DNA of 64,000 bases from an uncultured Chloroflexia bacterium (GCA_963828165.1 CAWHDR010000001.1:160001-224000), one strand, 5' to 3'; positions 33,871 to 63,703 are shown, numbered from the stretch's first letter. Translations and numbers: made by a program. Notes: generated by a model not told the origin, from the letters alone.

Positions 33871-34998
33871 ATGGTCACCCACCTGGAGTGGTCGGACACC
33901 ATCGGCAAGCGCGTGCGCAGCGGCGACTGGGCGGACCAGGCGGTCTCGACAGTGGTCAAGATCGAGGAGGAGCTCCAGGCGGCCGGCGACGAATTCGGGC
34001 TGGCCGCCAACCGCCGCGAGAACGCCGCGCAGCTCGTCGACTACTTCATGGAAGAGGCCAAGGTCGTTTACGTCATCTACAAGGTGTGGACGGCGGGCTT
34101 CAAGGACTGGCTCATCGAACAGGGCGTCACCCAGGCGGATATGGACGCCGAAGTGGAGCGGCTCAAGCAGCTGATGGCCTACCCGGACGGGACGCCGCTC
34201 GACCCCGAGCCGCGCTGGGAGGCGCTGGGGCTGCGGGCCGGTCGTCTGGCCAACGGGATCCGGAGCTACGACCTCTCCGTGGCCGACGCGATGGCCGAGC
34301 TCGACGGCGTTCGCGAGGACTGGCGGATGCTCCACGACCGATCGGCCGACCTGATGGCCGGGATCCTGGCCTTCGTCGTGAAGCGGTTCGGCGAGGCCGA
34401 GCTGGAGACCTGCTACCGGGCGATCATGGAGCCCTACCTTCAGGAGCGGTACATGCCGTTCGACGTTCGCGTCACGCCGTACGAGGAGACGCTCGACCGC
34501 AACCTGTACATCAGCCTCGAGGCGATGCGCGGTCACCTCGTGGGCCCGGGCCGGCGTGGGGACATCGAGCTGATCGAGGAGGAGGATCGCTGGGTCATCC
34601 GCTTCGACCCGTGCGCGTCGGGCGGGCGTATCCTGCGTGGCGACCCCGAGGAGGGCACCGGGTCGCGGGTCCTGGCGCCGTACGAGTTCGGCGTGATCGA
34701 GGAGCCCCGTCCCTGGACCTGGGGCGAGACCGGCGTCTGCCACTACTGCGCCCACTGCAACCTGGCCCTCTCGACGATCCCCGCAGAGCGCTGGGGTCAC
34801 CCGGTCCGAACGGTCGATCCGCCCCTCTGGCGTGGCGAGGATGACCCCACGACGATGCGCAAGTGCCAGTGGAGCGTGTGGAAGTCCCTCGAGGCGATCC
34901 CCGAGCGCGAGTACGAGCGCATCGGGCGGACCAAGCCGCCGCTGCCGGTCATCCAGCCGGGGGCTGACGGGCCGACGACGGGAGGCGCCGCCCAGTGA
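33871..34998 (+). CDS. Uncharacterised Cys-rich protein, paralog A
   Basis: GAGGAG RBS; EAMRGHLVGP, FDPCASGGR, GVCHYCAHC, KCQW, GRTKP motifs shared with 57718 and 63703. Confidence 0.85.
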   Translation: MVTHLEWSDTIGKRVRSGDWADQAVSTVVKIEEELQAAGDEFGLAANRRENAAQLVDYFMEEAKVVYVIYKVWTAGFKDWLIEQGVTQADMDAEVERLKQLMAYPDGTPLDPEPRWEALGLRAGRLANGIRSYDLSVADAMAELDGVREDWRMLHDRSADLMAGILAFVVKRFGEAELETCYRAIMEPYLQERYMPFDVRVTPYEETLDRNLYISLEAMRGHLVGPGRRGDIELIEEEDRWVIRFDPCASGGRILRGDPEEGTGSRVLAPYEFGVIEEPRPWTWGETGVCHYCAHCNLALSTIPAERWGHPVRTVDPPLWRGEDDPTTMRKCQWSVWKSLEAIPEREYERIGRTKPPLPVIQPGADGPTTGGAAQ

Positions 34999-35747
34999 GC
35001 GCCGAAGGGCGCCGGGCGATCGTCACGGGCGCCGGGAGCGGAATCGGCCAGGAGGTGGCCCTCCAGCTATTGGCGGCCGGTGCGCGCGTCACCGGCGTGG
35101 ACATCAACGACCGCGGGCTCGACCCGGTCCGCGAGGCGGGCGGTGAAGCGATGGTCGTGGACCTCGCGGATGTAGGTCAGCGCGCCACCGTCATCGCGTC
35201 GGCGCGCGAGGACCCGCCGAACTACCTCGTGAACGCCGCTGCGATCCTGGAAGTGATCGCGCTTGCCGACGTGGACGAGGCGACCTTCCGGCGCCACTTC
35301 ACGGTCAATGTCGAAGCGCCCTGGTTCCTGTGCCGCGACATCGGCGGCGTCCTCGTCGAAGGCGGCGCGATCGTCAACTTCTCGTCGCCGTCGGCGCGCT
35401 GGGCGTACACCCTCGAGACCGCTGTCTACGGCGCTACGAAGACCGCCGTCCAGGGCGTGACCCGTAGCTTCGCCATCGCGCTCGCACCGCGCAAGGTCAG
35501 GGTCAACGCGATCTCGCCCGGGATCACCGACACGCCGATGCAGGAGAAGGTCCTGCGCCAGGTCTCGGCCATGCGCGGGCTGTCGTACGAGGAGCTCAGC
35601 AGCAACCGCACGAAGCTCGTACCACTCGCCAGGTCCGCGCCGCCGTCGGAGATGGCCGGAGTGGTCCTCTGGCTGCTGTCCGATGCTGCGTCCTACATCA
35701 CCGGCCAGACGATCTATGTCGATGGCGGCTACATCATGTCGGCCTGA
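34995..35747 (+). CDS. Short-chain dehydrogenase/reductase
   Basis: TGAGSGIG, VNAA, YGATK, NAISPG. Confidence 0.92.
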   Translation: MSAEGRRAIVTGAGSGIGQEVALQLLAAGARVTGVDINDRGLDPVREAGGEAMVVDLADVGQRATVIASAREDPPNYLVNAAAILEVIALADVDEATFRRHFTVNVEAPWFLCRDIGGVLVEGGAIVNFSSPSARWAYTLETAVYGATKTAVQGVTRSFAIALAPRKVRVNAISPGITDTPMQEKVLRQVSAMRGLSYEELSSNRTKLVPLARSAPPSEMAGVVLWLLSDAASYITGQTIYVDGGYIMSA

Positions 35748-35812
35748 CCGAGGGTCAGAGGGGCTCAGGGTCGGCGGTTTGGTGCCGATCCGCCCCGTCG
35801 GTCGGACGCGAC

Positions 35813-35876
35813 TTGACACGTTCAGAGGTCGAGCCCTAGTCTCCGCTGACTCGGCCCTGACGACGTTTCCAGTAAC
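35813..35876 (+). promoter_or_regulatory. Sigma70-type promoter plus operator
   Basis: TTGACA 35813-18, N18, TAGTCT 35837-42; tgacgacgtttccagtaac 35858-76, identical to 33821-39. Confidence 0.7.
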
Positions 35877-35955
35877 ATTTCTCGCGGGCTTGGCCGTCAA
35901 TACTCGCGACGTTCGTCGGGCGCGGGCATCCCATCGGAAACCTGAGGAGGAACCC

Positions 35956-37023
35956 GTGCAGGAGACCCGTCTCTGGACGGCCACGAGTCGCACGCTCGCG
36001 CGCTGGTCCACCGTCGTCATCGTGGCCTTGCTGGTCGCGGCGTGTACCAATCCGCCGGCAGCCCCAACGTCCGCGGCACCCCCCGCGTCGGCGCCCGCAT
36101 CCGAGGCGCCGGCATCGTCGGCTCCGCCGGCATCCGCAGCCGCGAACAAGTACAAGATCGGCTACATCTCCCTTGGCGATTCGGTCCCGTTCGTGAAGCT
36201 CGTGTCGGACGGCATCAAGGAAGCCGCCGACGCCGCTGGCCAGGAGCTCCTGTTCTGCGACTCCGAGATCGACGCCGCCAAGGCGCTCGCGTGCGCGCAG
36301 AACCTGAAGGTCCAGGGTGCCGAGGGCGTGCTGAACTTCCAGGTCTTCCAGGACAGCTCGCCCGAGATCTGCACCGCCTATGGCAGCGTGCCGACCATCG
36401 CGATCGACATCATCCAGCCGCCGTGCCAGATCGCCTTCATGGGCGCCAACAACCGCGAGGCCGGACGACTCGGTGGCGCCGAGATGGGCAAGTACGCCAA
36501 GGAGAACTGGGACTGCGACTTCACGGCCTACGTGTCGCTCGAGTCGACGGCCGCCGGTGCCGCGAACACCGACCGCATGGGCGGCTGGCGTGACGGCTTC
36601 AAGGAGTCCTGCCCCATCCCGGCTGACAAGGAACGCGTCCTCGACGGCGCGGACCGGACCGACCCGGCCCTCGAGCAGGTGACCAACCTCCTGGGCGCCC
36701 TGCCGGGCGACCGGATCATCGTCGTCGCGATCAACGAGGACGGGATCCTCGGCGCCATCGGCGCCGCGAACACGCTCGGTCGCCAGACCGACCTCTTCTA
36801 CGGCGGCCAGGGTACCGATCCCTCCATCTGGAAGGACGTCGCCTGCAACCCGAACTACATCGCCTCGGTGGCGTACTTCCCGGAACGCTACGGGACCCTG
36901 CTCATCCCGAACATGATCAAGGCCCTCGATGGCGAGACGATCCCGAAGGAGATCTTCACCGAGCACGTCGTCGTGAACAAGGACAACATCCGGACCATCT
37001 ACCCGGAAACGCCGGCCTGTTGA
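35956..37023 (+). CDS. Sugar ABC (RbsB-like) substrate-binding lipoprotein 1
   Basis: Lipobox VAAC, Ala/Pro/Ser linker, KIGYIS, FMGANNREAG, INED, VAYFPERYG. Confidence 0.9.
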   Translation: MQETRLWTATSRTLARWSTVVIVALLVAACTNPPAAPTSAAPPASAPASEAPASSAPPASAAANKYKIGYISLGDSVPFVKLVSDGIKEAADAAGQELLFCDSEIDAAKALACAQNLKVQGAEGVLNFQVFQDSSPEICTAYGSVPTIAIDIIQPPCQIAFMGANNREAGRLGGAEMGKYAKENWDCDFTAYVSLESTAAGAANTDRMGGWRDGFKESCPIPADKERVLDGADRTDPALEQVTNLLGALPGDRIIVVAINEDGILGAIGAANTLGRQTDLFYGGQGTDPSIWKDVACNPNYIASVAYFPERYGTLLIPNMIKALDGETIPKEIFTEHVVVNKDNIRTIYPETPAC

Positions 37024-37051
37024 TGTCCCGGGTCACGATCGAGCCCGCCGC

Positions 37052-38545
37052 ATGACCTTCGCCCTCCAGGCGCGAGGCATCCGCAAGTCCTTCGGCGGCG
37101 TCGAGGTCCTCCATGGCGTGGACCTCGACGCTGTCGGCGGCTCTGTTCTGGCCCTCCTCGGCGAGAACGGCGCCGGCAAGTCCACGCTGGTCAAGATCAT
37201 CGCCGGCGACTACACGCCCGACGCGGGTGAGATCCTCGTCGATGAGACCAGCTACCCATCCCTGACGCCGATCGCGGCGCGCGATCTCGGGGTCGCGATC
37301 ATCTTCCAGGAATTCCAGGACGCCCCGACCCTGTCCGTGGCCGAGAACATCTCGCTCGGCCGGATCCCGAACAAGTTCGGGGTCGTGGATTGGAGAACCG
37401 TCAACCGACGAGCCCGCAAGATCCTCGATGCGCTCGGGGTGGACATCGACCCGGCACGCCGCGTCTCGACGCTGCGGGTCGGCGAACGCCAGATCATCGA
37501 GATCGCCCGGGCATTGTCTCGATCGGCCAGGCTCCTGATCCTGGACGAGCCGACCGCGGCCCTGTCGCATCACGAAGCCGACACGCTGTTCACGTTCATC
37601 CGCCGGCTGCGCGACCAGGGCGTCGCGATCATCTACATCACTCACCGCCTCGACGAAGTCACCGCCATCGCCGACAAGGTGCAGGTGCTGCGCGATGGCA
37701 ACGTCGCCCTCCTGGCGGACGTGGCCTCGACGGACCGGGCCGCGATGATCGAAGCCATGGTGGGTCGGCGGATCTCCGAGATCCCGCGGCCTCCGACCTT
37801 GATCCGCGAGGTCTCCGACGAACCGGTCATCCGCTGGACTGCCGCGGAGTCGGGGGACGCGTTCCACGACGTCTCGCTCGGCGTCCACCGGGGTGAGATC
37901 GTCGCGATCTACGGGAAGCTCGGGTCAGGCGCCGCCGAGGTGGGTGAGACCGCCTACGGGCTCCGACCCATCACGAGCGGCACGATGGAGCTCGAGGGCA
38001 AGGTCGCGAACATCGGTGGCCCAGCTGAAGGCGTCGCGGCCGGGGTCGGGTTCCTGCCCGCGGACCGCAAGGCCGGGGGCGGTTTCATGGTCCGTCCGGT
38101 GGCGGAGAACGTCGCAGTCGCCTCGTGGGGACGTCTCGCGACGCTGGGCCAGCTGATCACCCGCCGGGCTGAGTCGAGGGCCTATCGGCGCTGGCACGAC
38201 AAGCTGTCGATCCGCTCCCGCAACGATCCGCGTCAGGCCATGGGCACGCTCTCGGGCGGCAACCAGCAGAAGGTGCTGCTCGCCCGCTGGCTCGAGCGGA
38301 GCAGCCGCGTCCTCGTGTTGATCGAGCCGACCCGAGGGGTCGACGTCGGCGCCCGGCAGGACATCTACAAGGCGCTCCGCGTGCTGTCGGCGGATGGCGT
38401 GGCCGTCCTGATCAGCACCTCGGATTACGAGGAGGCCGTGCAGGTCGCGGACCGTGTCTACGTCATGTCAAGAGGAGCGATCGTGGGCGACCTGTCGGGC
38501 GACGCGATCACGACGACGCGGCTGCTGGCCGCTGCTGGAGGGTGA
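37052..38545 (+). CDS. Sugar ABC ATP-binding protein (double NBD)
   Basis: GENGAGKST, LDEPTAAL, LSGGNQQK, EPTRGVDVGA. Confidence 0.95.
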   Translation: MTFALQARGIRKSFGGVEVLHGVDLDAVGGSVLALLGENGAGKSTLVKIIAGDYTPDAGEILVDETSYPSLTPIAARDLGVAIIFQEFQDAPTLSVAENISLGRIPNKFGVVDWRTVNRRARKILDALGVDIDPARRVSTLRVGERQIIEIARALSRSARLLILDEPTAALSHHEADTLFTFIRRLRDQGVAIIYITHRLDEVTAIADKVQVLRDGNVALLADVASTDRAAMIEAMVGRRISEIPRPPTLIREVSDEPVIRWTAAESGDAFHDVSLGVHRGEIVAIYGKLGSGAAEVGETAYGLRPITSGTMELEGKVANIGGPAEGVAAGVGFLPADRKAGGGFMVRPVAENVAVASWGRLATLGQLITRRAESRAYRRWHDKLSIRSRNDPRQAMGTLSGGNQQKVLLARWLERSSRVLVLIEPTRGVDVGARQDIYKALRVLSADGVAVLISTSDYEEAVQVADRVYVMSRGAIVGDLSGDAITTTRLLAAAGG

Positions 38546-39588
38546 GCCAAGTGACCGACCAGGAGCCCGCCGCGACCGTGGCCCCCGCCGCTCCCGCGAC
38601 GACGCCCGGGCGGGGCCGCGGCCTCTCGGTCCCCGAGACGGGGGCCCTGCTGGGCGTGCTCGTCATCCTGTTCCTCTACTTCTCGCTCGCGTCACCGTTC
38701 TTCCTGAACCAGGAGAACCTGGTCAACATCCTGCAGAACGTGGCGGTCGTCGGGATCATCGCCTGCCCGGCGACGTTGCTCCTCATCTCGGGGCAGTTCG
38801 ACCTGTCCGTCGGGTCCGGGGTCGGGTTCGCCGGGATGCTCATGGCCGTTACCGCCCTGGCGCCGGGTACCGGTGGGGTCGACCTGCCGTTCGCCATGAA
38901 CATGACCGTGCCGACCGCCTTCCTGGTCGCCGTCGTCGGGACCCTCTTGATCGGCGTGATCAATGCGGTCTGCGTCACCGTCATCGGCATCAACGCGCTG
39001 ATCACGACCCTGGGCACGCTGGCCATCTTCCGCGGCTTGACCAAGGTGCTCGGCGATGGCCAGACGATCCGGATCGAGAATTTCGGCCAATTGGGCGTCT
39101 TGCGGATCGCGGGCATCCCGTTGCCGGTCTACATCTTCGTCGGGGTCGTGATCATTTTCTGGCTGGCCCTGCGCTACACCGTGTACGGCCGGTCGCTGTA
39201 CGCCATCGGGGCGAGCCCGAGCGCGGCGCGCCTCGCCGGCATCCGGACGAAGCGCGTCATCGCCATCGCCTTCCTCCTCTCAGCCCTGTGTGTCGCTTTC
39301 GCGGGCCTGATCCGGCTCTCGCAGGTCGCCGGCGCGTCGGTCAACTCCGGACTCGGGATCGAGCTGTCCGTCGTGACGGCGGTGGTCCTCGGTGGAGCCA
39401 GCCTCTCGGGCGGGCGGGGCGGGATCGGCGGCACGGTCCTGGCGGTGCTCATCGTCGGCGTGCTCGCCAACGGCCTCATCCAGCTCAACGTCCCATCGTT
39501 CTGGATCGAGGTCGCCAACGGCCTGCTGCTCCTGGGAGCCGTGACCGTCGACCGCCTGCGCGTGCGACTGACGCGCGCCGACGTCTGA
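38542..39588 (+). CDS. Sugar ABC permease (RbsC-like)
   Basis: FDLSVGS, LITTLGTL, YGRSLYAIG, VVLGGASLSGGRG. Confidence 0.93.
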   Translation: MSQVTDQEPAATVAPAAPATTPGRGRGLSVPETGALLGVLVILFLYFSLASPFFLNQENLVNILQNVAVVGIIACPATLLLISGQFDLSVGSGVGFAGMLMAVTALAPGTGGVDLPFAMNMTVPTAFLVAVVGTLLIGVINAVCVTVIGINALITTLGTLAIFRGLTKVLGDGQTIRIENFGQLGVLRIAGIPLPVYIFVGVVIIFWLALRYTVYGRSLYAIGASPSAARLAGIRTKRVIAIAFLLSALCVAFAGLIRLSQVAGASVNSGLGIELSVVTAVVLGGASLSGGRGGIGGTVLAVLIVGVLANGLIQLNVPSFWIEVANGLLLLGAVTVDRLRVRLTRADV

Positions 39589-39640: not shown

Positions 39641-40534
39641 GTGACCGAGGTCGATCGCAGCATCCCGTTCATCGACACCCACCATCACCTGTGGGAGCTG
39701 GACCGCTTTCACTACGACTGGCTCACGGACCCGGGCTGGCCCGGTCATAGCGAGCTGCTCGGCGACTACAAGATGATCCGCTCGACCATCGGCGCGCCGT
39801 GGCGTCTCTTCAAGGAGTTCTACGGCGCGAATGTCATCAAGAGCGTGCACGTCGAGGCCGCGTACGCAGGGCCCGACGCGCTCGAGGAGACGGTCTGGCT
39901 GGAGACGGTCGGCAAGGAACACGGCTTCCCACATGCCCTGGTGGTCTTCTGCGACATCGAGGCGGACGGAGCCGAAGCGAAGCTGGACCAGCACCTCGCC
40001 GCGTCGGATCGCGTGCGCGGTGTGCGCATCCGTGCGCATCCGGACGATCCGGATACGGCGGCGTTCCGGAACGGCTATGCCGCCCTCGGAAAGCGCGGGC
40101 TCTCGTACGAGCTCAACGCCTCACCGGGCAAGCTGCTGTCGGGTCGCGACGTCGCGAAGGCGCACCCCGACGTCCAGGTGATCCTCGGCCACGCCGGGTT
40201 CCCGGTCCAGCGCGATGCCGAGTACTTCGGCCAGTGGAAGTCGGAGATGACGGCCCTGGGCGAGGCGGAGAACGTGGCCTGCAAGGTGTCGGGGTTCGGG
40301 ATGGCCGAGAATCACTGGACGATCGACTCCATCCGACCGTGGGTTCTTCATTGCATCGAGGCCTTCGGACCCGAACGGATCATGTTCGGCACGAACTGGC
40401 CCGTCGACATCCTCTACGCCACGTACCTCGAGCAGACAGATGCCTATCGGCGGATCCTGGCCGATGCCGGGTTCGGTCGCACTGAGCAGGAAGGGATGCT
40501 GTATCGGAACGCCGAACGCCTGTATCGGATCTGA
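39641..40534 (+). CDS. Amidohydrolase_2 family, L-fuconolactonase-like
   Basis: IDTHHHLW, SVHVEA, ILGHAGFP, NVACKVSG, FGPERIMFGTNWPVD. Confidence 0.88.
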   Translation: MTEVDRSIPFIDTHHHLWELDRFHYDWLTDPGWPGHSELLGDYKMIRSTIGAPWRLFKEFYGANVIKSVHVEAAYAGPDALEETVWLETVGKEHGFPHALVVFCDIEADGAEAKLDQHLAASDRVRGVRIRAHPDDPDTAAFRNGYAALGKRGLSYELNASPGKLLSGRDVAKAHPDVQVILGHAGFPVQRDAEYFGQWKSEMTALGEAENVACKVSGFGMAENHWTIDSIRPWVLHCIEAFGPERIMFGTNWPVDILYATYLEQTDAYRRILADAGFGRTEQEGMLYRNAERLYRI

Positions 40535-40570
40535 GTTCCCCCGCCCCAAACCTGGAGGAGAAACTACCTG

Positions 40571-41608
40571 ATGCGTCGCACCCAATCCCTCGCGATCGTG
40601 GCCGGCCTGGTCATCCTGGTCGCCGCGTGTACCAACCCACCCGCCGCCTCGGTCGCGCCGTCCAGCGCGGCGCCGGCATCGTCGGCACCCGCGTCGGAAG
40701 CCCCGTCGTCCGCCGCGCCGACGGCCATGAAGGTCGGCTACATCTCGCTCGGCGAGGCGATCCCGTTCGTCAGCCTCGTCACCAACAGCATCAAGGAGGA
40801 GGCCGACAAGGTCCCCGGTCTCGAGATCGTCGTGTGCGACTCCGAGATCGACGCGGCCAAGGCCCTTGCCTGCGCCCAGAACCTCAAGGTGCAGGAGGTC
40901 CAGGCCGTCCTGAACTTCCAGCTCTTCGAGGACAGCTCGCCCGAGGTCTGCACGGCCTACGGTGACCTGCCGACCATCGCCATCGACATCCACCAGGCGC
41001 CGTGCGAGGTGGCCTTCATGGGCGCCGATAACACCCTTGCGGGCACCCTGGCCGGCAAGGTCGTCGGCGACGCCCTCAAGGCCGAGAACGACTGCACCTA
41101 CGAGGCCGTCGTGACGCTCGATACCAAGGGTGCCGGCGCAACGACGCTCGCCCGCATGGACGGCATGATCGCCGGGTTCGAGGAGGCGTGCGGCACCATC
41201 GACCCCGCCAAGTTCAAGAGCATCGACGTCGGCGGCACGACCGACCTGGCCCTCGAGAAGTTCGGGAACCAGCTGTCCGCGATCAAGCCGGGCGGCATCA
41301 TCGCCATCCTGAGCCTGAACGACGACATGTCGCTCGGGGCCTTCGCCGCCGCCCGCACCGCGGGTCGCGAGACGGAGCTCCGCCTCGCCGGTCAGGGCGC
41401 CGATCCGACCTCCTGGAAGGAGATCGCCTGCAACCCGCAGTGGCTCGGTGACACCGCGTACTTCCCGGAGCGGTACGGCACCATCCTGGTCCCGGCCGTG
41501 GTCGACCTGCTGAGCGGGAAGACCATCGAGAAGAACCTGTTCACCAAGCACGAGGTCGTCACCAAGGACAACATCCGGACCGTGTATCCGGAAACCCCCG
41601 CCTGCTGA
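40571..41608 (+). CDS. Sugar ABC substrate-binding lipoprotein 2 (close paralog of 35956)
   Basis: Shares CDSEIDAAKALACAQNLKVQ and the KDNIRT.YPETPAC end with SBP 1. Confidence 0.9.
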   Translation: MRRTQSLAIVAGLVILVAACTNPPAASVAPSSAAPASSAPASEAPSSAAPTAMKVGYISLGEAIPFVSLVTNSIKEEADKVPGLEIVVCDSEIDAAKALACAQNLKVQEVQAVLNFQLFEDSSPEVCTAYGDLPTIAIDIHQAPCEVAFMGADNTLAGTLAGKVVGDALKAENDCTYEAVVTLDTKGAGATTLARMDGMIAGFEEACGTIDPAKFKSIDVGGTTDLALEKFGNQLSAIKPGGIIAILSLNDDMSLGAFAAARTAGRETELRLAGQGADPTSWKEIACNPQWLGDTAYFPERYGTILVPAVVDLLSGKTIEKNLFTKHEVVTKDNIRTVYPETPAC

Positions 41609-41623
41609 CCTTCGCTTTCCCAC

Positions 41624-41659
41624 GCTCGGCCCCGCCCTTCCCCCAGGGTGGGGCCGAGC
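41624..41659 (+). terminator. GC-rich hairpin after the SBP gene (terminator or mRNA stabiliser)
   Basis: gctcggccccgccct-loop-agggtggggccgagc, 15-bp stem with one G-U pair; no U-tract. Confidence 0.55.
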
Positions 41660-41681
41660 CATTCCACCCAGGGAGACACCG

Positions 41682-42398
41682 ATGACCGAGTCGCGGGTCG
41701 CGCTCGTGACTGGTAGCGCGCGTGGCATGGGCCGCGCGATGGGCGAGGTGCTCACCGCGTCCGGCCACCGTGTGGTGGGCCTGGATCGCCTGGAGCAGGA
41801 TCCCGGGCCGCTCCATCGAACCGTCGTCGCGGACCTCGCGGATCCGTCCGTCCCGGGCAGGGTGGTCGCGGACATCCTCGCGACCGAGGGTCGCCTCGAC
41901 GTGCTCGTCCACAACGCCGCGGTGCTCGTCCATCAACACCCGCTCGCCGAGGTCACGTTCGAGGACTACGACCTCCAGACCTCGGTCAACCTGCGCGCCG
42001 TGTTCTTCCTGTCGCAGGCCGCGGCCGAGGCGATGCGCCCCAACGGTTTCGGGCGGATCATCGCGATCTCCAGCGTCGGTGCGCGGACCGGCGGGATGTC
42101 CAACTCGGCGATCTACGCCTCGACGAAGGCCGGCGTCATCAGCCTCATGAAGAACTTTGCCCGGAACTACGGCCGCCACGGGATAACGGCGAACGCCGTC
42201 GCGCCCGGCGCGGTCGAAGGGTTCATGACCGAGCACCTGACCGCGGCCGAACGTGAGACGTTCACCGGGCTCGTGCCCCTGGGCCGCTTCGCCGACCCGA
42301 TCGAAGTCGCCCATGTCGTCGACTTCCTCGCCTCGGACCGAGCGAGCTTCGTCAACGGCGCCACCATCGACGTCAATGGCGGCTGGGTCATGGCGTGA
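41682..42398 (+). CDS. Short-chain dehydrogenase/reductase
   Basis: TGSARGMG, HNAA, YASTK, NAVAPG. Confidence 0.92.
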   Translation: MTESRVALVTGSARGMGRAMGEVLTASGHRVVGLDRLEQDPGPLHRTVVADLADPSVPGRVVADILATEGRLDVLVHNAAVLVHQHPLAEVTFEDYDLQTSVNLRAVFFLSQAAAEAMRPNGFGRIIAISSVGARTGGMSNSAIYASTKAGVISLMKNFARNYGRHGITANAVAPGAVEGFMTEHLTAAERETFTGLVPLGRFADPIEVAHVVDFLASDRASFVNGATIDVNGGWVMA

Positions 42399-44628: not shown

Positions 44629-44650
44629 GGGCACACCGTCCCAAGCCGGG

Positions 44651-55636: not shown

Positions 55637-55687
55637 CTCACGAACCGTCGCTACGGCTGAGGGACCGTTCGCTGATCCGCAACGATC

Positions 55688-56770
55688 TCAGCGGGCCGCG
55701 TAGAACTCGTCGATGTTGTCGGCGTTGATAAAGAGGTGCTCGACCAGAACCTCCGTCGCCACCGTCTCGCCCTTGGCGAGAGCGATCGCGAGGGGCATCA
55801 CCAGCTCGCCATACGTCTCTGGGAAGTAGGCCACGGATCCCACCCACTGGGGCTCGTTCCGGATCGCGTCGCGAACGCTCGGGTCGGCTCCGTGCGTCGC
55901 GACCCAGACCTGGTCCTTGCGCCCCGCCACTTCGGCGGCACCCAAGGCGGCAGAACCCATCCCGTCGCCCGACGGCGAGATCACGAGGATGGTCTTCGCC
56001 TCCGGTAAGGTCGTGAGGATGTCGGCCATCTGGCGGCGCGAGTTCTCCGGCTGGTCAGGGCCGCCCGCGAACGTGTCCACCGAGAAGTATTTGTCCCGCG
56101 GGATCGGGCCGCACACGCCCTCGAACCCCTCCACGCTTCCACCCGCCCGAGCAGCATTGATTTCGGCGATCGTCGGAAAATCGAGCGTGATGTAGGCGTC
56201 GTACTGGCATCCGAACTTCTCGGAAGCGAAATCTCCGAGCCCCTTCCCGGCGACCAATCCGGCCTCGCGGTTGTTCGCACCCACGAAGGTTTCCTGACAC
56301 GGCTCCTCCGGCGTGTCGATCGCGACCGTCGGAAGGTTGCCGTAGGCCTCGCAGACCGCTTCCGACGAGTCGGGGAAGAACTGCCAGTTGATCATCGAGT
56401 CCAGCTCCTGGGCTGCGAGTGTCCGGGCGCATGTCAACGCCTTTTCGGCCTCGAACGCGCTGTCACATTCGGAGAGCTCGACGCCAGCCTTGACCGCCTC
56501 AGCTCGGATGCCCTCGGTGACGAGGAGCACGAACGGATCGCTGTCCCCGCCGGAGATGTAGCCGATCCGATGCGTCTCGCCGGGTCCGGACGGGGTCGAT
56601 GACGATCCGGCACCGCTCGACGGGGACGCAGAGGCTCCGGCATCGGCGGTCGGCGCCGACGACGCTACCGGTGTGGAGCAGGCTGCGGCGGCGAGGACCA
56701 CGACCGCGAGAAAGGTCGGCCAGCGAACTGGCTTGCGCCGCATGTCGAATCCGGGACCGGTGTACAGCAC
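55688..56770 (-). CDS. Sugar ABC substrate-binding lipoprotein 3
   Basis: GGAGG RBS; AAAC lipobox; RIGYIS, ECDS...ALTCAR, FVGANNREAG, VAYFPETYG. Confidence 0.88.
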   Translation of the reverse strand: MLYTGPGFDMRRKPVRWPTFLAVVVLAAAACSTPVASSAPTADAGASASPSSGAGSSSTPSGPGETHRIGYISGGDSDPFVLLVTEGIRAEAVKAGVELSECDSAFEAEKALTCARTLAAQELDSMINWQFFPDSSEAVCEAYGNLPTVAIDTPEEPCQETFVGANNREAGLVAGKGLGDFASEKFGCQYDAYITLDFPTIAEINAARAGGSVEGFEGVCGPIPRDKYFSVDTFAGGPDQPENSRRQMADILTTLPEAKTILVISPSGDGMGSAALGAAEVAGRKDQVWVATHGADPSVRDAIRNEPQWVGSVAYFPETYGELVMPLAIALAKGETVATEVLVEHLFINADNIDEFYAAR

Positions 56771-56874
56771 GTTCCCTCCTCCACTCATCACGCGGCGCGC
56801 GACGTCCGATGGACGTCCAGCCGCAAGCAAGAAAACGATACCAGAGTGACCCCGCTGTCTGATAGTCTCCTGCT

Positions 56875-57648
56875 GTGTTCGAGATCGCATCGGGTCGCAA
56901 GGCGGTCATCACCGGTGGTGCTTCCGGCTTCGGTTTCGGGGTCGCGGAGCGGCTGCTGGAAGCCGGAGCATCGGTCGCGATCGCCGATGTCGATGCTGCG
57001 GCCGTCAAGGCCGCCGGGGATCGCCTGCGCGGCGCGGTGACGATCGTCATGGACGTCACGGACCGCTCTTCCGTGGTCGCCGGCATCGGTCAGGCGGCCG
57101 AAACGTTCGGTGGCCTGGACACCCTGGTCAACTGCGCCGGCGTGTTCGAATTCCGGCCGTTCGAGGAAATCTCCGAGCGAGAATGGGACTGGATCCTCGA
57201 CGTCAACCTCAAGGGGGTCTTCCTCTCTTGCCAGGTCGCGCTCCCTCATCTGCGAGCCAGCGGCCGCGGCCGGGTCGTCAACATCTCGTCCGACGCGGGC
57301 AAGAAGGGATACGCGTTGATCGCGAGCTATGTGGCCTCGAAGTTCGGGGTCGTGGGCTTGACGGAGTCCCTCGCTGCGGAGTTCGGGCAATTCGGCGTGA
57401 CCGTGAACGCGGTCTGTCCATCGACGGTAGCCGAGACCCGCATGGGCCAGAAGGTGCTCGAACAAAAGGTCGACCTGTTCAGCAAGCCACCGGAGCGGGT
57501 GCTCGCCGAAGGTGCCCAGTCCTACCCGCTCCGACGACTGGGCACGGTCGCCGACGTGGCCGACACGATCATGTTCCTGATCTCCGACAGCGCCGGTTGG
57601 ATCAGCGGCGAGTCGATCAACATCGACGGTGGGAATTTGTCGGGCTGA
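56875..57648 (+). CDS. Short-chain dehydrogenase/reductase
   Basis: TGGASGFG, NCAG, YVASK, NAVCP. Confidence 0.92.
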   Translation: MFEIASGRKAVITGGASGFGFGVAERLLEAGASVAIADVDAAAVKAAGDRLRGAVTIVMDVTDRSSVVAGIGQAAETFGGLDTLVNCAGVFEFRPFEEISEREWDWILDVNLKGVFLSCQVALPHLRASGRGRVVNISSDAGKKGYALIASYVASKFGVVGLTESLAAEFGQFGVTVNAVCPSTVAETRMGQKVLEQKVDLFSKPPERVLAEGAQSYPLRRLGTVADVADTIMFLISDSAGWISGESINIDGGNLSG

Positions 57649-57717: not shown

Positions 57718-58854
57718 ATGACGGCTGACGCATCGGGCTGGATCGAGCAGATGCTGGTCGAAGCGGTCGGCCCCGAGGGTGCCGAACCGATCGACGGCGA
57801 TCAGGTCGTCCGGTACTCCGAGACTCTCGGCCGGAGGGTGCGATCGGACGCGACCTGGGCTGAAGCCGCGGTCTCCACCTATACCAAGGCCGTGGAGGCG
57901 ATCAGGGCCGGCGACTGGGATCGTGCCGCGCAGTACGTCGACTTCTTCGTCGATGAAGCCGCCGTCATCTATGGCGTGTTCCGCGGTCTGATCCCGGACG
58001 CCATCTTGTTCCTGGAGCAGCGGGGCGTTGCCCGCCCGAAGCTCCTCGAGATCAACCGACGGCTGCTGGACCTGATCCGGTTGCCGGGCGGGCGGCCGTT
58101 CGTGGCGCGCTCGCGGTGGGCCGAGTTCCAGGCCGACGTTCGCGCCTGCGTGGTCGCGTGCGGCAATGGAGCGACTGATGACGCCCTGGCCCACCTCGCT
58201 GAAGCGAAGGAGACCTGGCGCCAGATCCAGGACCGGGACGTGGATCACCTCTACGGCCTGCTGAACGAGGCGGTGGTGTTCTGGGGAGAACCGGTTGTCG
58301 GTGAGTTCTGGGATGCCATCATCGGCCCCCTGTTCACCGCGCGGTACGAGAAGTTCGACGTCGCGCGGAACCCGTGGGAGGACTCGCTCTGGACGAACGT
58401 GTACCTCGCCTTCGAGGCCATGCGAGGGCATCTCGTCGGGCCGGATCGCGACGGCACGATGGAGTTCAGCGAGGACGCCGAGCGATACACGTGGCGGTTC
58501 GACCCGTGCGGGAGCGGGGGGAGATCGCTGCGGGGCGATCACATCGAGGGCTCGCCGCCAAGGATGGAGGCGCCGTTCGAATATGGCGTGACCGAGGACG
58601 AATACGACTTCGCCTGGAACAAGAAGGGCGTCTGCTACTACTGCGTCAATTGCTGCGTCGTGATGCAGCTCAAGCCGATCGATACGTTCGGCTACCCGGT
58701 TCGAGTCGTCGAACCGCCGACGTACCCGGATCGAGGAGACGCGAAGTGCGTCTGGCACGTGTACAAGGATCCTTCGATGGTCCCCGAGCGGTACTACACG
58801 GACGTCGGCCGGACGAAGCCCGCGACCATCGGGCAGAAGCCGGCGAGCGACTGA
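57718..58854 (+). CDS. Uncharacterised Cys-rich protein, paralog B
   Basis: GGAGG RBS; EAMRGHLVGP, FDPCGSGGR, GVCYYCVNC, KCVW, GRTKP. Confidence 0.85.
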   Translation: MTADASGWIEQMLVEAVGPEGAEPIDGDQVVRYSETLGRRVRSDATWAEAAVSTYTKAVEAIRAGDWDRAAQYVDFFVDEAAVIYGVFRGLIPDAILFLEQRGVARPKLLEINRRLLDLIRLPGGRPFVARSRWAEFQADVRACVVACGNGATDDALAHLAEAKETWRQIQDRDVDHLYGLLNEAVVFWGEPVVGEFWDAIIGPLFTARYEKFDVARNPWEDSLWTNVYLAFEAMRGHLVGPDRDGTMEFSEDAERYTWRFDPCGSGGRSLRGDHIEGSPPRMEAPFEYGVTEDEYDFAWNKKGVCYYCVNCCVVMQLKPIDTFGYPVRVVEPPTYPDRGDAKCVWHVYKDPSMVPERYYTDVGRTKPATIGQKPASD

Positions 58855-59931
58855 ATGCGTCGGGTGCGCGTCGGCGTCGCCGGCGTCGGCCACTGGGCGA
58901 GGACGGCCCATCTTCCGGCGGTGACGTCGCATCCCGGGGCCGAGCTCGTCGCGATCGCCGATCCCGATCGGTCGAACCTTGAACGGTCGCGTGTTCGGTA
59001 CGGGGTGGAGGCCTCCTTCGATGACCCGTTCGAGATGCTCGCGCGATGCGATCTCGACGCCGTGATCGTCGCCACGCCCCATGCCTACCACTACGGGATC
59101 GGAATGACGGCGATCGAGCGAGGCTGCCATGTCCTGATCGAGAAACCGCTCGTCCTGGACCCGGCCGACGGCAGGCGACTGATCGCGGCGGCCACCGCCC
59201 GAGGCGTGGAGATCGTGGTCGGCTACACCTGGCACTACAACCGTCAGGTGCTGCGGGCCCGGGACTGGATCGGCGGGGGTCGGCTCGGATCGATCCAGTA
59301 CGTCCAGTCGTTCTTCGGGTCAAGCCCCATCAACCTGTACCGCGGTGACCCTGAGGCGGACGTGTACGCCTATGGTGCAGGCGAATCATTCGACGGGCCC
59401 CTGAAGACGACCTACTCGGAGCCCCGGCTCGCCGGTGGCGGCCAGGGCCAGACGCAGCTCACACATAGCATCGCCTTGCTGCTGTTCATGACGGCACTCG
59501 ACCCCGAACGGGTGTCCGCGTTCATGGAGAACCACTCGACGGCCGTCGACGTCGTTGACGCCGTCTCGGTCCGCTTCCGTGGCGGAGCGCTCGGTGTCAT
59601 CGGCAGCACGGGCGCCGTGATGCCGGTGAGCCACACCGATACGCTCGAATACATCATCCATGGGTCGGAGGGACACCTTCACTTCGATGTGATGGACGGG
59701 TCGCTGCGGCTCTTTGCCCGCGACGGACAGGTCGACGAGCCCACCTTGGCCCCTGCCGACCGCTATCCCCAGTCCAGCCCGGCCCGCAACCTCATCGACG
59801 TGGCCCTAGGCGCGGACGCCAACGGTTCTCCGGCTGCGATCGGCCAACGGACCGTGGAGGTCCTCCATGCCGCATACCGGAGCGCCGAGCTGGATGGAAC
59901 GGCAATCGACGTGGAGGGATCTGCAACATGA
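58855..59931 (+). CDS. Gfo/Idh/MocA oxidoreductase
   Basis: GVAGVGHWA, VATPH, LIEKP, GGGQGQTQLTH. Confidence 0.92.
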   Translation: MRRVRVGVAGVGHWARTAHLPAVTSHPGAELVAIADPDRSNLERSRVRYGVEASFDDPFEMLARCDLDAVIVATPHAYHYGIGMTAIERGCHVLIEKPLVLDPADGRRLIAAATARGVEIVVGYTWHYNRQVLRARDWIGGGRLGSIQYVQSFFGSSPINLYRGDPEADVYAYGAGESFDGPLKTTYSEPRLAGGGQGQTQLTHSIALLLFMTALDPERVSAFMENHSTAVDVVDAVSVRFRGGALGVIGSTGAVMPVSHTDTLEYIIHGSEGHLHFDVMDGSLRLFARDGQVDEPTLAPADRYPQSSPARNLIDVALGADANGSPAAIGQRTVEVLHAAYRSAELDGTAIDVEGSAT

Positions 59932-60710
59932 CGAGCCTCTCTGGCGAGGGCAACGAGCCAGGAACCCGGGTCGCCATCATCACCGGGGCCGGTGGCGGGC
60001 TCGGTGGCGCCGTCGCCAGGTTGCTGGCGGAAGGGGGCGGCTATCGACTGTGCCTGGTGGACAACCGTCTGGACGCCGTTGAGGGGGTCAGAGCCGAGCT
60101 CGCCGCCTCAGGTGCCGACGTCATGGCGCTCGTCGTGGATCTCGGCGTGTCGGACGAGGCCGAGTCGGTCGTGCCGAAGACGATCGAAGCATTCGGCCGC
60201 CTCGACGTGCTCGTCAACGCCGCGGCGATCCTTCACCGGCAAGCGTACGAGGAGGTCACGCCGCGGGATTTCGACGACGTCTTCCATGTCAACACCCTGG
60301 CCCCGTTCCTCCTGTCGCGCGCGGCGATCCCGGAGATGGCTCGGCGAAACTGGGGACGCATCGTCAATGTGACCTCGACGGGCGTCTACGAGGGCGGCTT
60401 CACGATGACATCCGCGTTGTACGAATCCTCCAAGGGCGCGGTGGCCGTGCTCACGAAGATGCTCGCCCGCCATGGAGCCGAGATGGGCGTCCTCGTGAAT
60501 ACCGTCTGCCCTGGTGGGATGCGGACGGGGATGCTTCTCAACGAGACATCACCGGAGCTGGTCGCGAAGGCCGAACGAGAGATGATTCCCCTGCATCGCC
60601 TTGCCGACCCGACTGAGGTCGGCCGGATCATCGCGTGGCTGGTCAGCGACCTGAACACGTATGCGACCGGGGCCGAGTTCGATATCACCGGCGGTCTGGC
60701 GCTCCACTAG
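59928..60710 (+). CDS. Short-chain dehydrogenase/reductase
   Basis: TGAGGGLG, VNAA, YESSK, NTVCPG. Confidence 0.9.
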   Translation: MTSLSGEGNEPGTRVAIITGAGGGLGGAVARLLAEGGGYRLCLVDNRLDAVEGVRAELAASGADVMALVVDLGVSDEAESVVPKTIEAFGRLDVLVNAAAILHRQAYEEVTPRDFDDVFHVNTLAPFLLSRAAIPEMARRNWGRIVNVTSTGVYEGGFTMTSALYESSKGAVAVLTKMLARHGAEMGVLVNTVCPGGMRTGMLLNETSPELVAKAEREMIPLHRLADPTEVGRIIAWLVSDLNTYATGAEFDITGGLALH

Positions 60711-60730
60711 CGCCGCGCGTCGCAAGCACG

Positions 60731-60772
60731 TTGACAGTCGAGCTGGCGAGCCAGTACGGTGAAAACGATATC
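60731..60772 (+). promoter_or_regulatory. Sigma70-type promoter plus operator-like site
   Basis: TTGACA 60731-36, N18, TACGGT 60755-60; gaaaacgatatc 60761-72. Confidence 0.65.
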
Positions 60773-60849
60773 TCAGGTGCGTTCCGACCCTTGAACCCGC
60801 GCCCTCCACTCCCTCGGTCGAGCGGGCCGGACGCCTATCGGGAGGAATC

Positions 60850-61332
60850 ATGACGACCAGCTCGCGTTTTCGCGCACTCGATCACATCGGGTACGCGGTT
60901 TCCGAGTTGGACCGGTCGATCGCGTTCTACGAGACGCTCCTTGGCGTTCCGCTCCTGATGCGCAAGACCTGGGAAGTCCCGTACGTCGGCGAGATCGTCG
61001 GCTACCCCGACCTCGTCCTCGAGGGCGCCTTCTTCCAGTTACCGAACGGTGTGATCCTGGAGTTGCTCGAGTACAAGACGCCGCCTCCGGGAGCGGTCGA
61101 CATGGAGAGCTACAACGCGGGGAATGCCCATCTCTGCCTCGTCACCGATGACATGGAGGTCGATTTCGCACGTCTGCGCGCCGCTGGTTACGACACGTTC
61201 CGGTCCGCGGCCCCGGTCGGCATCCCGTGGGGGCCGTACCGGGGCGGCCGCGCCTGCTACCTACGCGATCCGGACGGTGTCTCGATCGAGCTGCTCGAAG
61301 AGCCGTCGGGCGGGCCGGACTGGACGGCATGA
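60850..61332 (+). CDS. VOC (glyoxalase/methylmalonyl-CoA epimerase-like) protein
   Basis: LDHIGYAV, LELLEY, GNAHLCL, YLRDPDGVSIELLE. Confidence 0.9.
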   Translation: MTTSSRFRALDHIGYAVSELDRSIAFYETLLGVPLLMRKTWEVPYVGEIVGYPDLVLEGAFFQLPNGVILELLEYKTPPPGAVDMESYNAGNAHLCLVTDDMEVDFARLRAAGYDTFRSAAPVGIPWGPYRGGRACYLRDPDGVSIELLEEPSGGPDWTA

Positions 61333-61365
61333 GCCTTTGAACGGGTGCGATCGCGGGGGGCGTCG

Positions 61366-62493
61366 ATGAAGATCGCTCGTGTCGAGGCATTCCCGGTCCG
61401 CTACCCCGAGCCGAACAACGATGGGAAGGTCCGCTCGCTCACCCTGGTCCGGGTCGAGGCGGACGACGGGCAGACGGGTTGGGGTGAGGCGATCTCCGGA
61501 GCGCAGGAGGTCTCGCTCGCGGTCAAGCTGATCGCTGAGCGCCGCCTGGCCCCGCTGCTCCTCGGTCAGGACCCGCGTGATGTCGTGCGACTCTGGGGGC
61601 GCATGCGCGACGCCACGTATTGGGACGGCAACGGGGGGATCGTCACGTTTGCGATCTCGGCATTGGACATGGCCCTATGGGATCTCAAGGGGAGGATCGA
61701 GGATCGGCCGCTGGTCGAGATGCTCGGCGGACGGCAGCACGATCGCCTTCGCGCATGTGCCAGCACCATCTTTCATTCCGATGACCTGGATCTGATCGGC
61801 GACGAGTTCGCGACGTTCGCGGCGCAGGGCTACACCGCGGTCAAGGGCGGCTGGGGGCACAACCTGGACACCGCATTCGGCCGTGACATGGACCGGGACC
61901 TGCGGATCGCGCGCGCCGTTCGCACGGCCGTCGGCCCGGACGTCGACGTGATCTGCGACGTCGTGGCGCTGGCCGGCTGGACCGTCGAGCACGCCGCCCG
62001 CATGGCTCGGCAGCTCGACGAGGAGGTCGGGTTGTTCTGGCTCGAGGACCCGCTCCCGGAGCAGGACCTGGCCGGTTACCAACGGCTCCGTGAGGCGGTG
62101 AGCACGCGCATCTGTACCGGCGAGAAAGGGTGGACCGGCGACCACTTCGGCCGGCTCATCGACTCGGGAGCCCTGGACGTGATCATGATCGACCCGGGCA
62201 AGGCTGAGGGGATCACCGGGACCTGGAACGTCATCCAGGCGGCCGCTGCGGCGGGCCGTGACTGGAACGCGCATTCCTGGAGCAGTGCGCTCAACACGGC
62301 CGCATCGCTCCACCTGGCCGCGGCGTCCAGCAACGTGCTCGTGATGGAGCTCAAGCCGACGCCGTCACCGATGCAGCACGAGCTCGTTCATGACCCGATC
62401 GAACAGCAGGGCGGCTGGGTCAGCCCGCCCGACGGACCCGGCCTGGGGGTCGAGGTCGACGAGGCCGTTGTCCGCGAGTATCTGTTCAGCTGA
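61366..62493 (+). CDS. Mandelate racemase/muconate lactonizing enzyme family, paralog 2
   Basis: Shares EPNNDGK.RSLTLV, WDGNGG, TAVKGGWGH, TGEKGW, WNAHSWSSA with 22159..23292. Confidence 0.92.
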   Translation: MKIARVEAFPVRYPEPNNDGKVRSLTLVRVEADDGQTGWGEAISGAQEVSLAVKLIAERRLAPLLLGQDPRDVVRLWGRMRDATYWDGNGGIVTFAISALDMALWDLKGRIEDRPLVEMLGGRQHDRLRACASTIFHSDDLDLIGDEFATFAAQGYTAVKGGWGHNLDTAFGRDMDRDLRIARAVRTAVGPDVDVICDVVALAGWTVEHAARMARQLDEEVGLFWLEDPLPEQDLAGYQRLREAVSTRICTGEKGWTGDHFGRLIDSGALDVIMIDPGKAEGITGTWNVIQAAAAAGRDWNAHSWSSALNTAASLHLAAASSNVLVMELKPTPSPMQHELVHDPIEQQGGWVSPPDGPGLGVEVDEAVVREYLFS

Positions 62494-62586
62494 GGCGTTC
62501 CCGGCCGTGCGTCGGAGAGAAGCCCGGGCGCCACTCGGAGGAGGAGAGCGGCGCCCGGGTTTGTGAAAACGGTGACGGTGGCGGCG

Positions 62587-63703
62587 TCAGCCGGCGCCGG
62601 GCAGACCGGCATTGATCACGGGGAGCTCGCGGGCGCCGCTGGCCTTCGACACCGAACGACGTGGGCTTGGTCCGCCCGACGCGCGTGTAGTACTCCTCCG
62701 GCACCTGGGTCGGGTCCTTGAACATCTGCCACTGGCATTTCTGCGCCTCGCCGACCGCGATGTGCTCGGCGTCATACACAGGCGGGTCGACGACCCGGAC
62801 GGGGTAGCCGAAGCGATCCATGGGCATCTCTTCCATGAGGATGATGCAGTGGGTGCAATAGAGGCAGACGCCTGGCGTGTTGTGGTTCCAGGTGTGTGGC
62901 TCCTCGGTCACCTTCCAGTCGTACGGCGGCTGCATCCGCGGCGGCGTGCCCTCGATCGAGTCGCCGCGCAGGGTGCGGCCACCCGAGCCGCATGGGTCGA
63001 AGCGGAGGACGAAGCGATCCTCCAGTTCCACCAGCTCCATATCGCCGGTTCGCTCCGGTCCGACCAGGTGGCCGCGCATCGCCTCGCAGGCGACGAGCAT
63101 GAGGATCTCGAGCGACTCGTCCCACGGGTACTTGTCGACGTCGAACTTCTCGTAGCGCCAGACGAACAGCGGCAGGAGGACGCGGTCGTACATGTCTCGG
63201 ATGGCCAATTCGCCGAGCTGCTCCTTGATGAGGGACATCAGCGCGTACGTGTGGTCGACGTCACGGTCGTGGCACTGCCGCCACGTCTCCTTCATGACAT
63301 CGAGCCGTCGTTTGGCTTCTTCCGGCTGCTCGCGGTACGTCGCCGCGGTGAAGTCCTGGACCTCGGAGAGGAAGCGGTCCCACTGCTTGCGGGGGTGCCA
63401 CGGGCTGCCGTCGGGAAGGGACGCGACGGCGATCGCCTGATCGTTGCGGGCCTTGATCACGGCCTCGTCGACGCCCTTGTCGCGGAGATAGCCGTTGAGG
63501 TCACCGATCCACTGGCGGTAGAGCGTGAAGCAGACGTTCGCCTCGTCCACGAAGTAGCTGCCCAGCTGCGCTGCCTCGTCCCAGCGGGCACCGTCGAGCG
63601 CCTCGATGATCTTGCGGTAGGTGGAGACCTTCTGGTCCTCCCACGGTCCCATCCGCACGCGGCGACCAAGCAGCTCCGTGAAGGCGATGGTCGTCTCGGT
63701 CAC
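62587..63703 (-). CDS. Uncharacterised Cys-rich protein, paralog C (probable frameshift near 62651)
   Basis: EAMRGHLVGP, FDPCGSGGR, GVCLYCTHC, KCQW, GRTKP; the alternative-frame tail ELPVINAG matches paralog A's LPVIQPG. Confidence 0.85.

Follow-up and report, generated by a model that had tools for sequence, protein, structure and literature searches.

We analysed a 64,000-nucleotide stretch of DNA from an uncultured Chloroflexia bacterium (GCA_963828165.1, CAWHDR010000001.1:160001-224000; hereafter the window) and found that it encodes three paralogs, A, B and C, of a protein family that, as far as its sequences tell, is previously unnamed, with neither a domain model nor a match to any known family. 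The family is closely associated with genes for the uptake and oxidation of sugars in uncultured Chloroflexota and Actinomycetota, and its members are predicted to combine a helical N-terminal half with a C-terminal module that carries conserved Cys residues. Tentatively, and with somewhat less than even confidence, we take these proteins to be metal-binding, probably dimeric enzymes that act on an oxidised sugar or sugar-acid intermediate.

Paralog A (33871-34998, + strand) encodes 375 amino acids; a GAGGAG Shine-Dalgarno sequence lies 7 nt 5' of its ATG at 33871, and its final 4 nt, stop codon included, are shared with the GTG start of a short-chain dehydrogenase/reductase (SDR) gene at 34995. 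Paralog B (57718-58854, +, 378 amino acids) is flanked by an SDR gene (56875-57648, +) and a GFO_IDH_MocA dehydrogenase gene (58855-59931, +) that begins directly after its stop. A first-pass annotation of this DNA had described both arrangements, and both are as it said. Paralog C (62486-63703, −) starts at 63703 and reads as a 405-amino-acid open frame under genetic code table 11, its conserved core occupying 62633-63703. By BLASTP, A and B are 39% identical over 365 amino acids (E 1e-80) and B and C 45% over 350 (E 2e-108), scores so far beyond chance that the three are clear paralogs, as had been proposed. The nine motifs listed earlier were all present in A, B and C, in the same order, in an alignment of the three copies, and the invariant positions include C248, C290, C293, C296, C332 and H222 (A numbering). 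Within the genome (3.31 Mb in 6 contigs, 87.7% complete), a profile built from the three copies hits A, B and C and no other place. Consistent with the earlier statement that signal peptides and transmembrane segments are absent, none of the three has a hydrophobic N-terminus; the highest 19-residue Kyte-Doolittle means were 0.96 for A, 1.72 for B and 1.14 for C, and the 1.72 stretch of B lies in a helix of the bundle in the structural model described below (predicted local distance difference test, pLDDT, 96-98). The promoter and operator attributed to A itself were not recovered: the region 33400-34000 contained no sigma-70-type site and no inverted repeat of at least 10 nt, non-canonical promoters lying outside the reach of the scan.

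The end of paralog C also needs correction. It had been placed at 62587, but 62587-63703 covers 1117 nt, a length not divisible by 3, and the table-11 stop falls at 62486 instead. Read to that stop, C gains about 55 unrelated residues and runs 8 nt into the end of the neighbouring enolase-type gene. When the frame is shifted by +1 after GRTKPTSFG, it reads SKASGARELPVINAGLPGAG* with the stop at 62587-62589, and SKASGARELPVINAGLPGAG is the conserved tail of the C-type orthologs. Because the shifted frame encodes this tail, the region near the 3' end of C is affected by a 1-nt frameshift or an error of assembly, with the conserved core intact, and the ancestral stop of the gene, judged by the orthologs, is the one at 62587-62589 in the +1-shifted frame. 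The DNA sequencing runs with matches to the window shared at most 0.14 of the sampled words, and no RNA run was listed. Contigs from four of these runs over 62400-63800 leave 62588-62634 uncovered and are thus silent on whether the frameshift is real.

Known families do not account for these proteins. Pfam and NCBIfam contain no model that A, B or C matches above threshold; together with the lack of a match among PDB sequences, this agrees with the earlier description of a single unassigned family. A search of 5.8 billion proteins found 452 relatives, and the 120 listed among them had no Pfam domain and no name beyond "hypothetical protein"; the same was true of the members listed from ten clusters. 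In an exhaustive search, representatives at 50% identity numbered 832 at E ≤ 0.001, 503 at E ≤ 1e-10 and 156 at E ≤ 1e-30. Of 74 representatives scanned, none had its family region covered by a Pfam model: 71 had no match at all, and the matches of the other three (two GFO domains and one weak TPR) lie outside it. V4R, ATC_hydrolase and HNOB were absent from the 25 listed of the 42 Pfam families that 68 members matched at E ≤ 10. Three matches were set aside as chance-level, namely Pfam FCD in B (E 0.004, below cut-off), TIGR04358 in C (19.8 bits against a cut-off of 40) and B12-binding_2 (3 of 68 members, best E 0.033). The literature searched, on V4R/H-NOX zinc proteins and on ATC hydrolase and DUF6125 (supplements being outside its scope), yielded nothing on such a family. 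There are thus several hundred sequence clusters without a name, domain model or structure, and a family model is deserved.

The named carriers are nearly all metagenome-assembled genomes (MAGs) of Chloroflexota (Limnocylindria and others) and Actinomycetota (Acidimicrobiia, Thermoleophilia, Gaiellales), mostly from soil, sediment and freshwater or associated with sponges; one cultured Microbacteriaceae strain also carries the family, and the Antiquaquibacter soli record (L078) comes from a cultured carrier. In the lineage of the window the family is rare: of the genomes sampled, 3 of 151 in the class (among them just 1 of 9 others from the genus) and 6 of 401 in the phylum have it, so that the window region is accessory.

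An AlphaFold2 model of B, computed with a 68-sequence alignment, reached a pLDDT of 92.6 and a predicted template-modelling score (pTM) of 0.89. In it the chain is helical as far as residue 237 and then forms a beta-beta-(alpha, long loop)-alpha-beta-beta module, with strands at 249-252, 256-261, 330-332 and 344-349 and a helix at 310-324. This bears out the helical N-half and Cys-bearing alpha/beta C-half foreseen in the first-pass annotation. C264 follows strand 2, C306, C309 and C312 open the helix 310-324, and C344 opens the last strand. Across the 68 members (B numbering), C264 and C344 are each kept in 66, C312 in 63, C309 in 61 and C306 in 50; H238 occurs in 64 members and Y308 in every one. 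The conservation of five Cys and one His claimed earlier therefore holds among A, B and C and does not extend to the whole family, in which C306 is lost most often. The remaining four Cys form a core with the spacing C-x44-CxxC-x31-C and are all present in 57 of the 68 members. Charged residues conserved in at least 80% of the members are R42, D172, D176, E191, E233, R236, R256, R269, R329 and K350.

As the models of two paralogs suggest, the fold probably resembles that of H-NOX and V4R proteins, and a metal is probably held by its Cys residues. Chains of H-NOX, TRAPPC3 and BcsD made up 11 of the 46 listed Foldseek rows for the A model and 9 of the 43 for the B model; all are weak (E ≥ 0.27, best probability 0.47), and H-NOX is the most frequent family among them. 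The best family-specific row, which is not significant, was Shewanella oneidensis H-NOX (4u99_A; probability 0.47, E 0.61, target-normalised TM score 0.39, root-mean-square deviation 6.3 Å over 190 columns), and the TRAPPC3 and BcsD rows had E of 0.4-1.9. The order of secondary-structure elements in the B model is the same as what we take to be the H-NOX topology; the family differs from H-NOX in having no signalling partner genes nearby. ESM-Atlas listed clusters of ATC_hydrolase and DUF6125 at scores of 0.78-0.80, and B12-binding_2 occurs on 12-17% of the members in two nearby ESM clusters, a weak lead. The fold guessed in the first-pass annotation thus gains from a weak but coherent recurrence in two paralog models and from the ESM-Atlas leads, though it lacks a significant match.

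With V4R/TRAPPC3 (Bet3) proteins, such as the phenol-sensor domains of PoxR and MopR and Thorarchaeota TRAPPC3 (PDB 7yh2, 7yh3), the family, as modelled, shares helices followed by a four-stranded sheet and conserved Cys at the sheet-helix junction, and TRAPPC3 chains recur among the weak Foldseek rows; the known proteins of this group are dimeric. According to parts of PMC10933270, Thor-TRAPPC3 and PoxR bind Zn through Cys residues, the Zn site tethers the sheet to the helix and so creates and shapes ligand cavities, and H-NOX and AxCeSD belong to the same fold class as V4R/TRAPPC3. The family differs from these proteins by about 150 extra N-terminal helical residues in its long forms, by a 35-residue insert between strand 2 and the long helix, by its many conserved charged residues, and by its place in catabolic operons and not in regulators. 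Neither V4R (PF02830) nor DUF6125 (PF19620) was matched in Pfam by A, B, C or the 74 representatives, and the 25 families listed for the 68 members include neither.

Profile comparison gives no significant link between the family and the candidate relatives. We aligned, per family, true members from Chloroflexota genomes and compared them by hhalign: our family gave 0.9% (P 0.059) and 3.1% (P 0.014) against ATC hydrolase (13 PF14196 proteins), 0.43% (P 0.14) against V4R (15 stand-alone proteins) and 0.22% (P 0.27) against DUF6125 (a small alignment of 4 members), whereas the positive control, ATC hydrolase against V4R, gave 93.3% (E 2.7e-7). In five genomes that have PF14196 genes, the family profile found none of them even at E ≤ 10, and conversely PF14196 matched neither A, B and C at E ≤ 1 nor the 74 representatives at E ≤ 0.01. 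Membership in ATC hydrolase, V4R or DUF6125 is thus not supported by sequence, and the likeness to ATC hydrolase drawn earlier is not supported at the level of family membership. A very remote relation to ATC hydrolase is possible. ATC hydrolase and DUF6125 proteins are likewise small, divide into a helical and a Cys-bearing half, and have three conserved Cys in what looks like the same order of elements. The two local hhalign alignments to ATC hydrolase are collinear and pair Cys sensibly, one covering the GE helix (P 0.014) and the other the CxxC helix and the last-strand Cys (P 0.059). C110, C130 and C159 of ATC hydrolase are invariant or nearly so in the aligned members; C264, C309/C312 and C344 of our family stand in the corresponding secondary-structure elements, and hhalign pairs the last two. 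What sets the family apart from both is its own motifs, DPCGSGGR, GVCxYCxHC and KCxWxxYK, and the lack of detectable homology where the control works.

We called open reading frames (ORFs) in 78 related loci and the window, clustered the products and named the representatives of clusters found in at least three loci. The calling was crude, with a filter on GC content at third codon positions (GC3); it called a family gene in 75 sources, 88 genes in all, and a small number of loci lost theirs in the calling, among them L020 (its A-type gene), L058 and L078. Two orthogroups are represented in the loci, A-type with 44 genes and C-type with 43, and no ortholog of B occurred among the 80 loci kept. 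Within 5 kb of the 88 family genes we found an SDR gene in 54 cases, a FucI/SftI-like isomerase in 39, an ABC permease in 28 and an ABC ATPase in 27, an enolase-type dehydratase in 22, a zinc-dependent alcohol dehydrogenase (ADH) in 20, a xylose-isomerase-like TIM protein in 19, an EamA transporter in 18 (beside 15 of the 43 C-type genes) and a rhamnose-mutarotase-like protein in 17. The immediate same-strand neighbour was a dehydrogenase for 30 of the 88 genes (SDR 16, ADH 10, GFO 4). A-type genes mainly accompany an SDR and an RbsB-like ABC importer, and C-type genes the isomerase, ADH, EamA and mutarotase. LacI-type regulators also occur in the clusters. The closest NCBIfam models of the neighbours, all below cut-off, were L-fucono-1,5-lactonase, galactonate, arabinonate and L-talarate dehydratases, glucose and L-rhamnose 1-dehydrogenases, scyllo-inosose 3-dehydrogenase and D-apionate lactonase. 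Going by these matches, the neighbours are the toolkit of non-phosphorylative oxidative sugar catabolism, and the earlier placement of the family in catabolic clusters is confirmed by the sugar importers, dehydrogenases, lactonases and dehydratases around the 88 genes.

The isomerase of these clusters is itself unusual. It is about 470 amino acids long and has no Pfam match, and its match to the NCBIfam sulfoquinovose isomerase SftI (E 1e-10) is far below cut-off. It is represented by L057:4085-5494 (−) and 36 similar genes in 35 related loci; none was called in the window.

FAH, DHDPS and aldehyde dehydrogenase families normally finish non-phosphorylative sugar routes. None of the three appeared among the Pfam-scanned representatives of gene clusters in at least three loci (8-kb flanks). 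The likeness to pathways that use FAH-family 2,4-diketo-3-deoxy-acid hydrolases, 2-keto-3-deoxy-acid dehydratases and DHDPS-type aldolases lies in the genomic setting only: a mutarotase, a sugar dehydrogenase, an Amidohydro_2 lactonase, an enolase-type dehydratase and a second SDR are shared, and a likeness of role would be read from that setting, as FAH- and DHDPS-type enzymes have no sequence or fold relation to the family. Genes for MaoC, HpcH and CoA-transferase near some A-type genes (best matches itaconate-degradation RipB/RipC and succinyl-CoA:mesaconate transferase) were set aside as adjacent, probably separate modules, as were nearby genes for PDH-like E1/E2 and tartrate-dehydrogenase-like proteins.

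Short forms of about 230 amino acids, which lack roughly residues 75-150, occur in another setting. One Chloroflexota genome has three of them (L098:8001-8699(−), L099:7998-8684(−) and L100:8007-8702(+)), each directly upstream of a family III CoA-transferase gene and an MFS transporter gene, with further CoA-transferase, SDR, Amidohydro_2, PTE and enoyl-CoA hydratase genes around them, so that the family is not restricted to sugar clusters. As judged by gene content, carboxylic acids are common to all the contexts, and so are dehydrogenases and hydrolases of the lactonase type.

Copy number and gene order bear on the assembly of the protein. The genome of the window has three copies, as does G221, and G287 has two; the complete actinobacterial chromosomes G331, G333 and G335 have two each and G332 and G334 three each, one of the three genes of G332 being split in two; G040 has two, G078 three, and G186 and G420 (73% complete) one each. 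Two or more copies are thus present in 10 of 12 genomes. Nine of the 44 A-type genes have a C-type gene within 5 kb; in L037 the order on one strand is mutarotase, C-type, ADH, A-type, isomerase, and the two family genes flank one ADH gene. Five representative clusters (P0175, P0208, P0272, P0245 and P0181) have two short forms joined in tandem within a single polypeptide, and those of P0208 and P0245 recur, with 3 and 4 members from separate contigs. The homolog search gave only fragments as shorter split forms and none of the longer, fused kind, the latter negative being weak evidence. Multiple copies, adjacency of A- and C-type genes and tandem fusions together favour some two-protomer unit, and by analogy with the dimeric habit of the fold class they point to such a unit while leaving homo- and heterodimer undivided. 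Complex prediction from A-type and C-type alignments gave 0.00 in both runs, a value that counts neither for nor against binding. The separate operons with transporters of their own favour a different substrate for each paralog.

Taken together, A, B and C would be cytoplasmic proteins in which an N-terminal helical bundle precedes a beta-beta-alpha-alpha-beta-beta module. By analogy with H-NOX/V4R/TRAPPC3-fold proteins, a structural metal, probably Zn, is most likely bound by four Cys (B numbering): one where strand 2 ends, two in the CxxC that opens the long helix and one where the last strand begins. A ring of conserved residues (R42, D172, D176, E191, E233, R236, H238, R256, R269, Y308, H311, R329 and K350) may line a pocket suited to a small molecule that is polar and anionic. 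The protein would then serve as an enzyme of non-phosphorylative, oxidative sugar catabolism beside an NAD(P)-dependent dehydrogenase, probably as a dimer and possibly one of two different paralogs. Its substrate may be an oxidised intermediate such as a keto-sugar or a 2-keto-3-deoxy or 2,4-diketo-3-deoxy sugar acid, on which it could perform a downstream dehydration, hydrolysis or C-C cleavage, a step with no known enzyme in the clusters. If so, it would fill an unassigned step of oxidative sugar catabolism with a sensor-type fold recruited for catalysis.

Several observations weigh against such an enzyme. Foldseek found no PDB match at E ≤ 0.001 for the models of A and B, and the VIA-align matches are filled by the N-terminal helical bundle and do not reach the C-terminal module. 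A profile search of PDB sequences likewise gave no match (best E 1.2), and no solved relative supports the proposal; the clustering of the Cys and the pocket are deduced from secondary-structure positions and conservation. At least one core Cys is absent in 11 of the 68 members, and in four of them the CxxC pair is lost jointly with C264 and C344 retained, which means that the metal site is non-universal or that C264 and C344 have another role. Stand-alone proteins of the H-NOX/V4R-type fold class are often binders, not enzymes. The argument from a missing step depends on the 8-kb flanks and the crude ORF calling, and the known finishing enzymes could be encoded elsewhere in the genomes. The short forms suggest, besides, that the common chemistry of the family may not be sugar-specific.

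The main rival, which we consider rather doubtful but worth serious attention, is a non-catalytic binder of small molecules that would act as a sensor, carry a labile intermediate or serve the adjacent dehydrogenase as an accessory subunit. The folds that it weakly resembles in Foldseek are ligand-binding ones, V4R, TRAPPC3 and H-NOX working as binders, and parts of PMC10933270 conclude that such proteins serve in ligand binding. The dehydrogenases found next to 30 of the 88 family genes also speak for a binder, as do two singleton representatives that read through into a GFO domain, although these are single sequences and may be read-through artefacts. Against it stand the lack of an output or DNA-binding domain, the LacI-type regulators already present in the clusters and the very many charged and polar residues conserved across the 68 members. 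If it is a binder after all, the family would be a new accessory of sugar dehydrogenases. That the Cys hold a [4Fe-4S] or [2Fe-2S] cluster, acting as a Lewis acid in a hydro-lyase or in redox, is close to the ring-opening or lyase activity imagined in the first-pass annotation, and we judge it unlikely. The C-x44-CxxC-x31-C core with four Cys in 57 of 68 members would allow it, and Fe-S hydro-lyases are common in sugar-acid metabolism. Against this stand the retention of the other conserved residues in members without the CxxC, the lack of Fe-S assembly or activase genes recurring beside the family in the loci, and the provenance of the carriers, mostly soil, sediment and sponge-associated Chloroflexota and Actinomycetota; the fold class that the family resembles, moreover, uses such Cys for structural Zn in the proteins covered by parts of PMC10933270.

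Descent from the ATC-hydrolase/DUF6125 lineage at a very great distance, with hydrolytic opening of a heterocyclic or lactone-type ring, seems improbable to us. The ESM-Atlas clusters and the two collinear alignments speak for it, and so does a passage of PMC5847659 in which HNOB, V4R and ATC hydrolase domains are called similar and linked by a cluster of three conserved Cys; yet the hhalign probabilities of 0.2-3% stand against 93% for the control, the profile misses the PF14196 genes in five of five genomes, and the clusters already have lactonases of the Amidohydro_2 and PTE types. Least probable of all, and hardly to be expected, is an H-NOX-like cofactor protein with heme or another tetrapyrrole, in which H238, on the last turn of the helix that precedes strand 1, would be the axial ligand and the Arg after strand 2 would hold the propionates. 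H238 (64 of 68) and R269 (60 of 68) do stand at what we take to be the positions of the H-NOX proximal His and the YxSxR region, and the frequency of H-NOX among the Foldseek rows and the B12-binding_2 lead would agree. All these matches are weak, however, and the context is purely catabolic, with no partner kinases, cyclases or heme-handling genes nearby.

The proposal of a metal-binding sugar-acid enzyme can be drawn out further into a version that is bold and, as a whole, unlikely: the family could be a new class of metalloenzyme on an H-NOX/V4R-like ligand-binding scaffold, in which a dimer of A-type and C-type protomers, tandem-fused in some lineages, dehydrates, hydrolyses or cleaves (at a C-C bond) 2-keto-3-deoxy or 2,4-diketo-3-deoxy sugar acids in place of the FAH- or DHDPS-type enzymes of known non-phosphorylative routes, while the short forms carry out related chemistry that feeds family III CoA-transferases.

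In the window, A belongs to the A-type orthogroup, whose orthologs in Chloroflexota and Actinomycetota MAGs are 49-95% identical. The SDR that follows it (34995-35747, +; Pfam adh_short_C2, E 5.6e-49) has glucose 1-dehydrogenase-like models as its best NCBIfam rows, below cut-off. Downstream on the same strand come a sugar-type ABC importer (35683-39588; Peripla_BP_4, ABC_tran and BPD_transp_2; RbsB-like, E 5e-13) with a binding protein (35683-37023), an ATPase (37052-38545) and a permease (38542-39588), then an Amidohydro_2 lactonase-like gene (39641-40534; Pfam E 4.8e-37, L-fucono-1,5-lactonase model E 1.8e-23, below cut-off), and a group at 40571-43876 consisting of a second binding protein (40571-41608), an SDR (41682-42398) and a GFO-like protein of 493 amino acids (42395-43876). 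In this last protein the GFO_IDH_MocA NAD-binding domain spans residues 8-122, and the other ~370 residues have no family match.

B has relatives of 81-93% identity in the protein database. Beside it lies a divergent sugar ABC importer (53850-56890, −) with ATPase, permease and binding protein, the last at 55688-56890, and the SDR upstream of B matches adh_short at E 4.8e-55. The GFO_IDH_MocA gene after B (Pfam E 6.4e-26) resembles inositol 2-dehydrogenase in NCBIfam (E 1.5e-24, below cut-off). It is followed on the + strand, over 59928-62493, by an SDR (59928-60710), a glyoxalase/VOC protein (60850-61332) and an enolase-superfamily sugar-acid dehydratase (61345-62493; galactonate/arabinonate dehydratase-like in NCBIfam, below cut-off). 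The C-type orthologs of C are 59-91% identical. Divergent from C, the start of an EamA-family transporter gene (63621-64000, +) runs off the window, and it continues in L097 (1621-2640, EamA E 1.4e-15).

Elsewhere in the window there are three phosphotriesterase-family (PTE, lactonase-like) genes at 24648-25664 (−), 44651-45574 (−) and 49707-50615 (+), a creatininase-family gene (45695-46804) and an EF_0837-like amidohydrolase gene (43453-44847). At 16358-17384 (−), a PF13769 ("Virulence_fact") gene and a DUF1638 gene adjoin one another upstream of MaoC-like genes (17392-19198) and seem unrelated to the family. The island extends beyond the window into L097 (222001-240000), where we found two further sugar-type ABC systems, a luciferase-like monooxygenase, an aldo-keto reductase and one more SDR.

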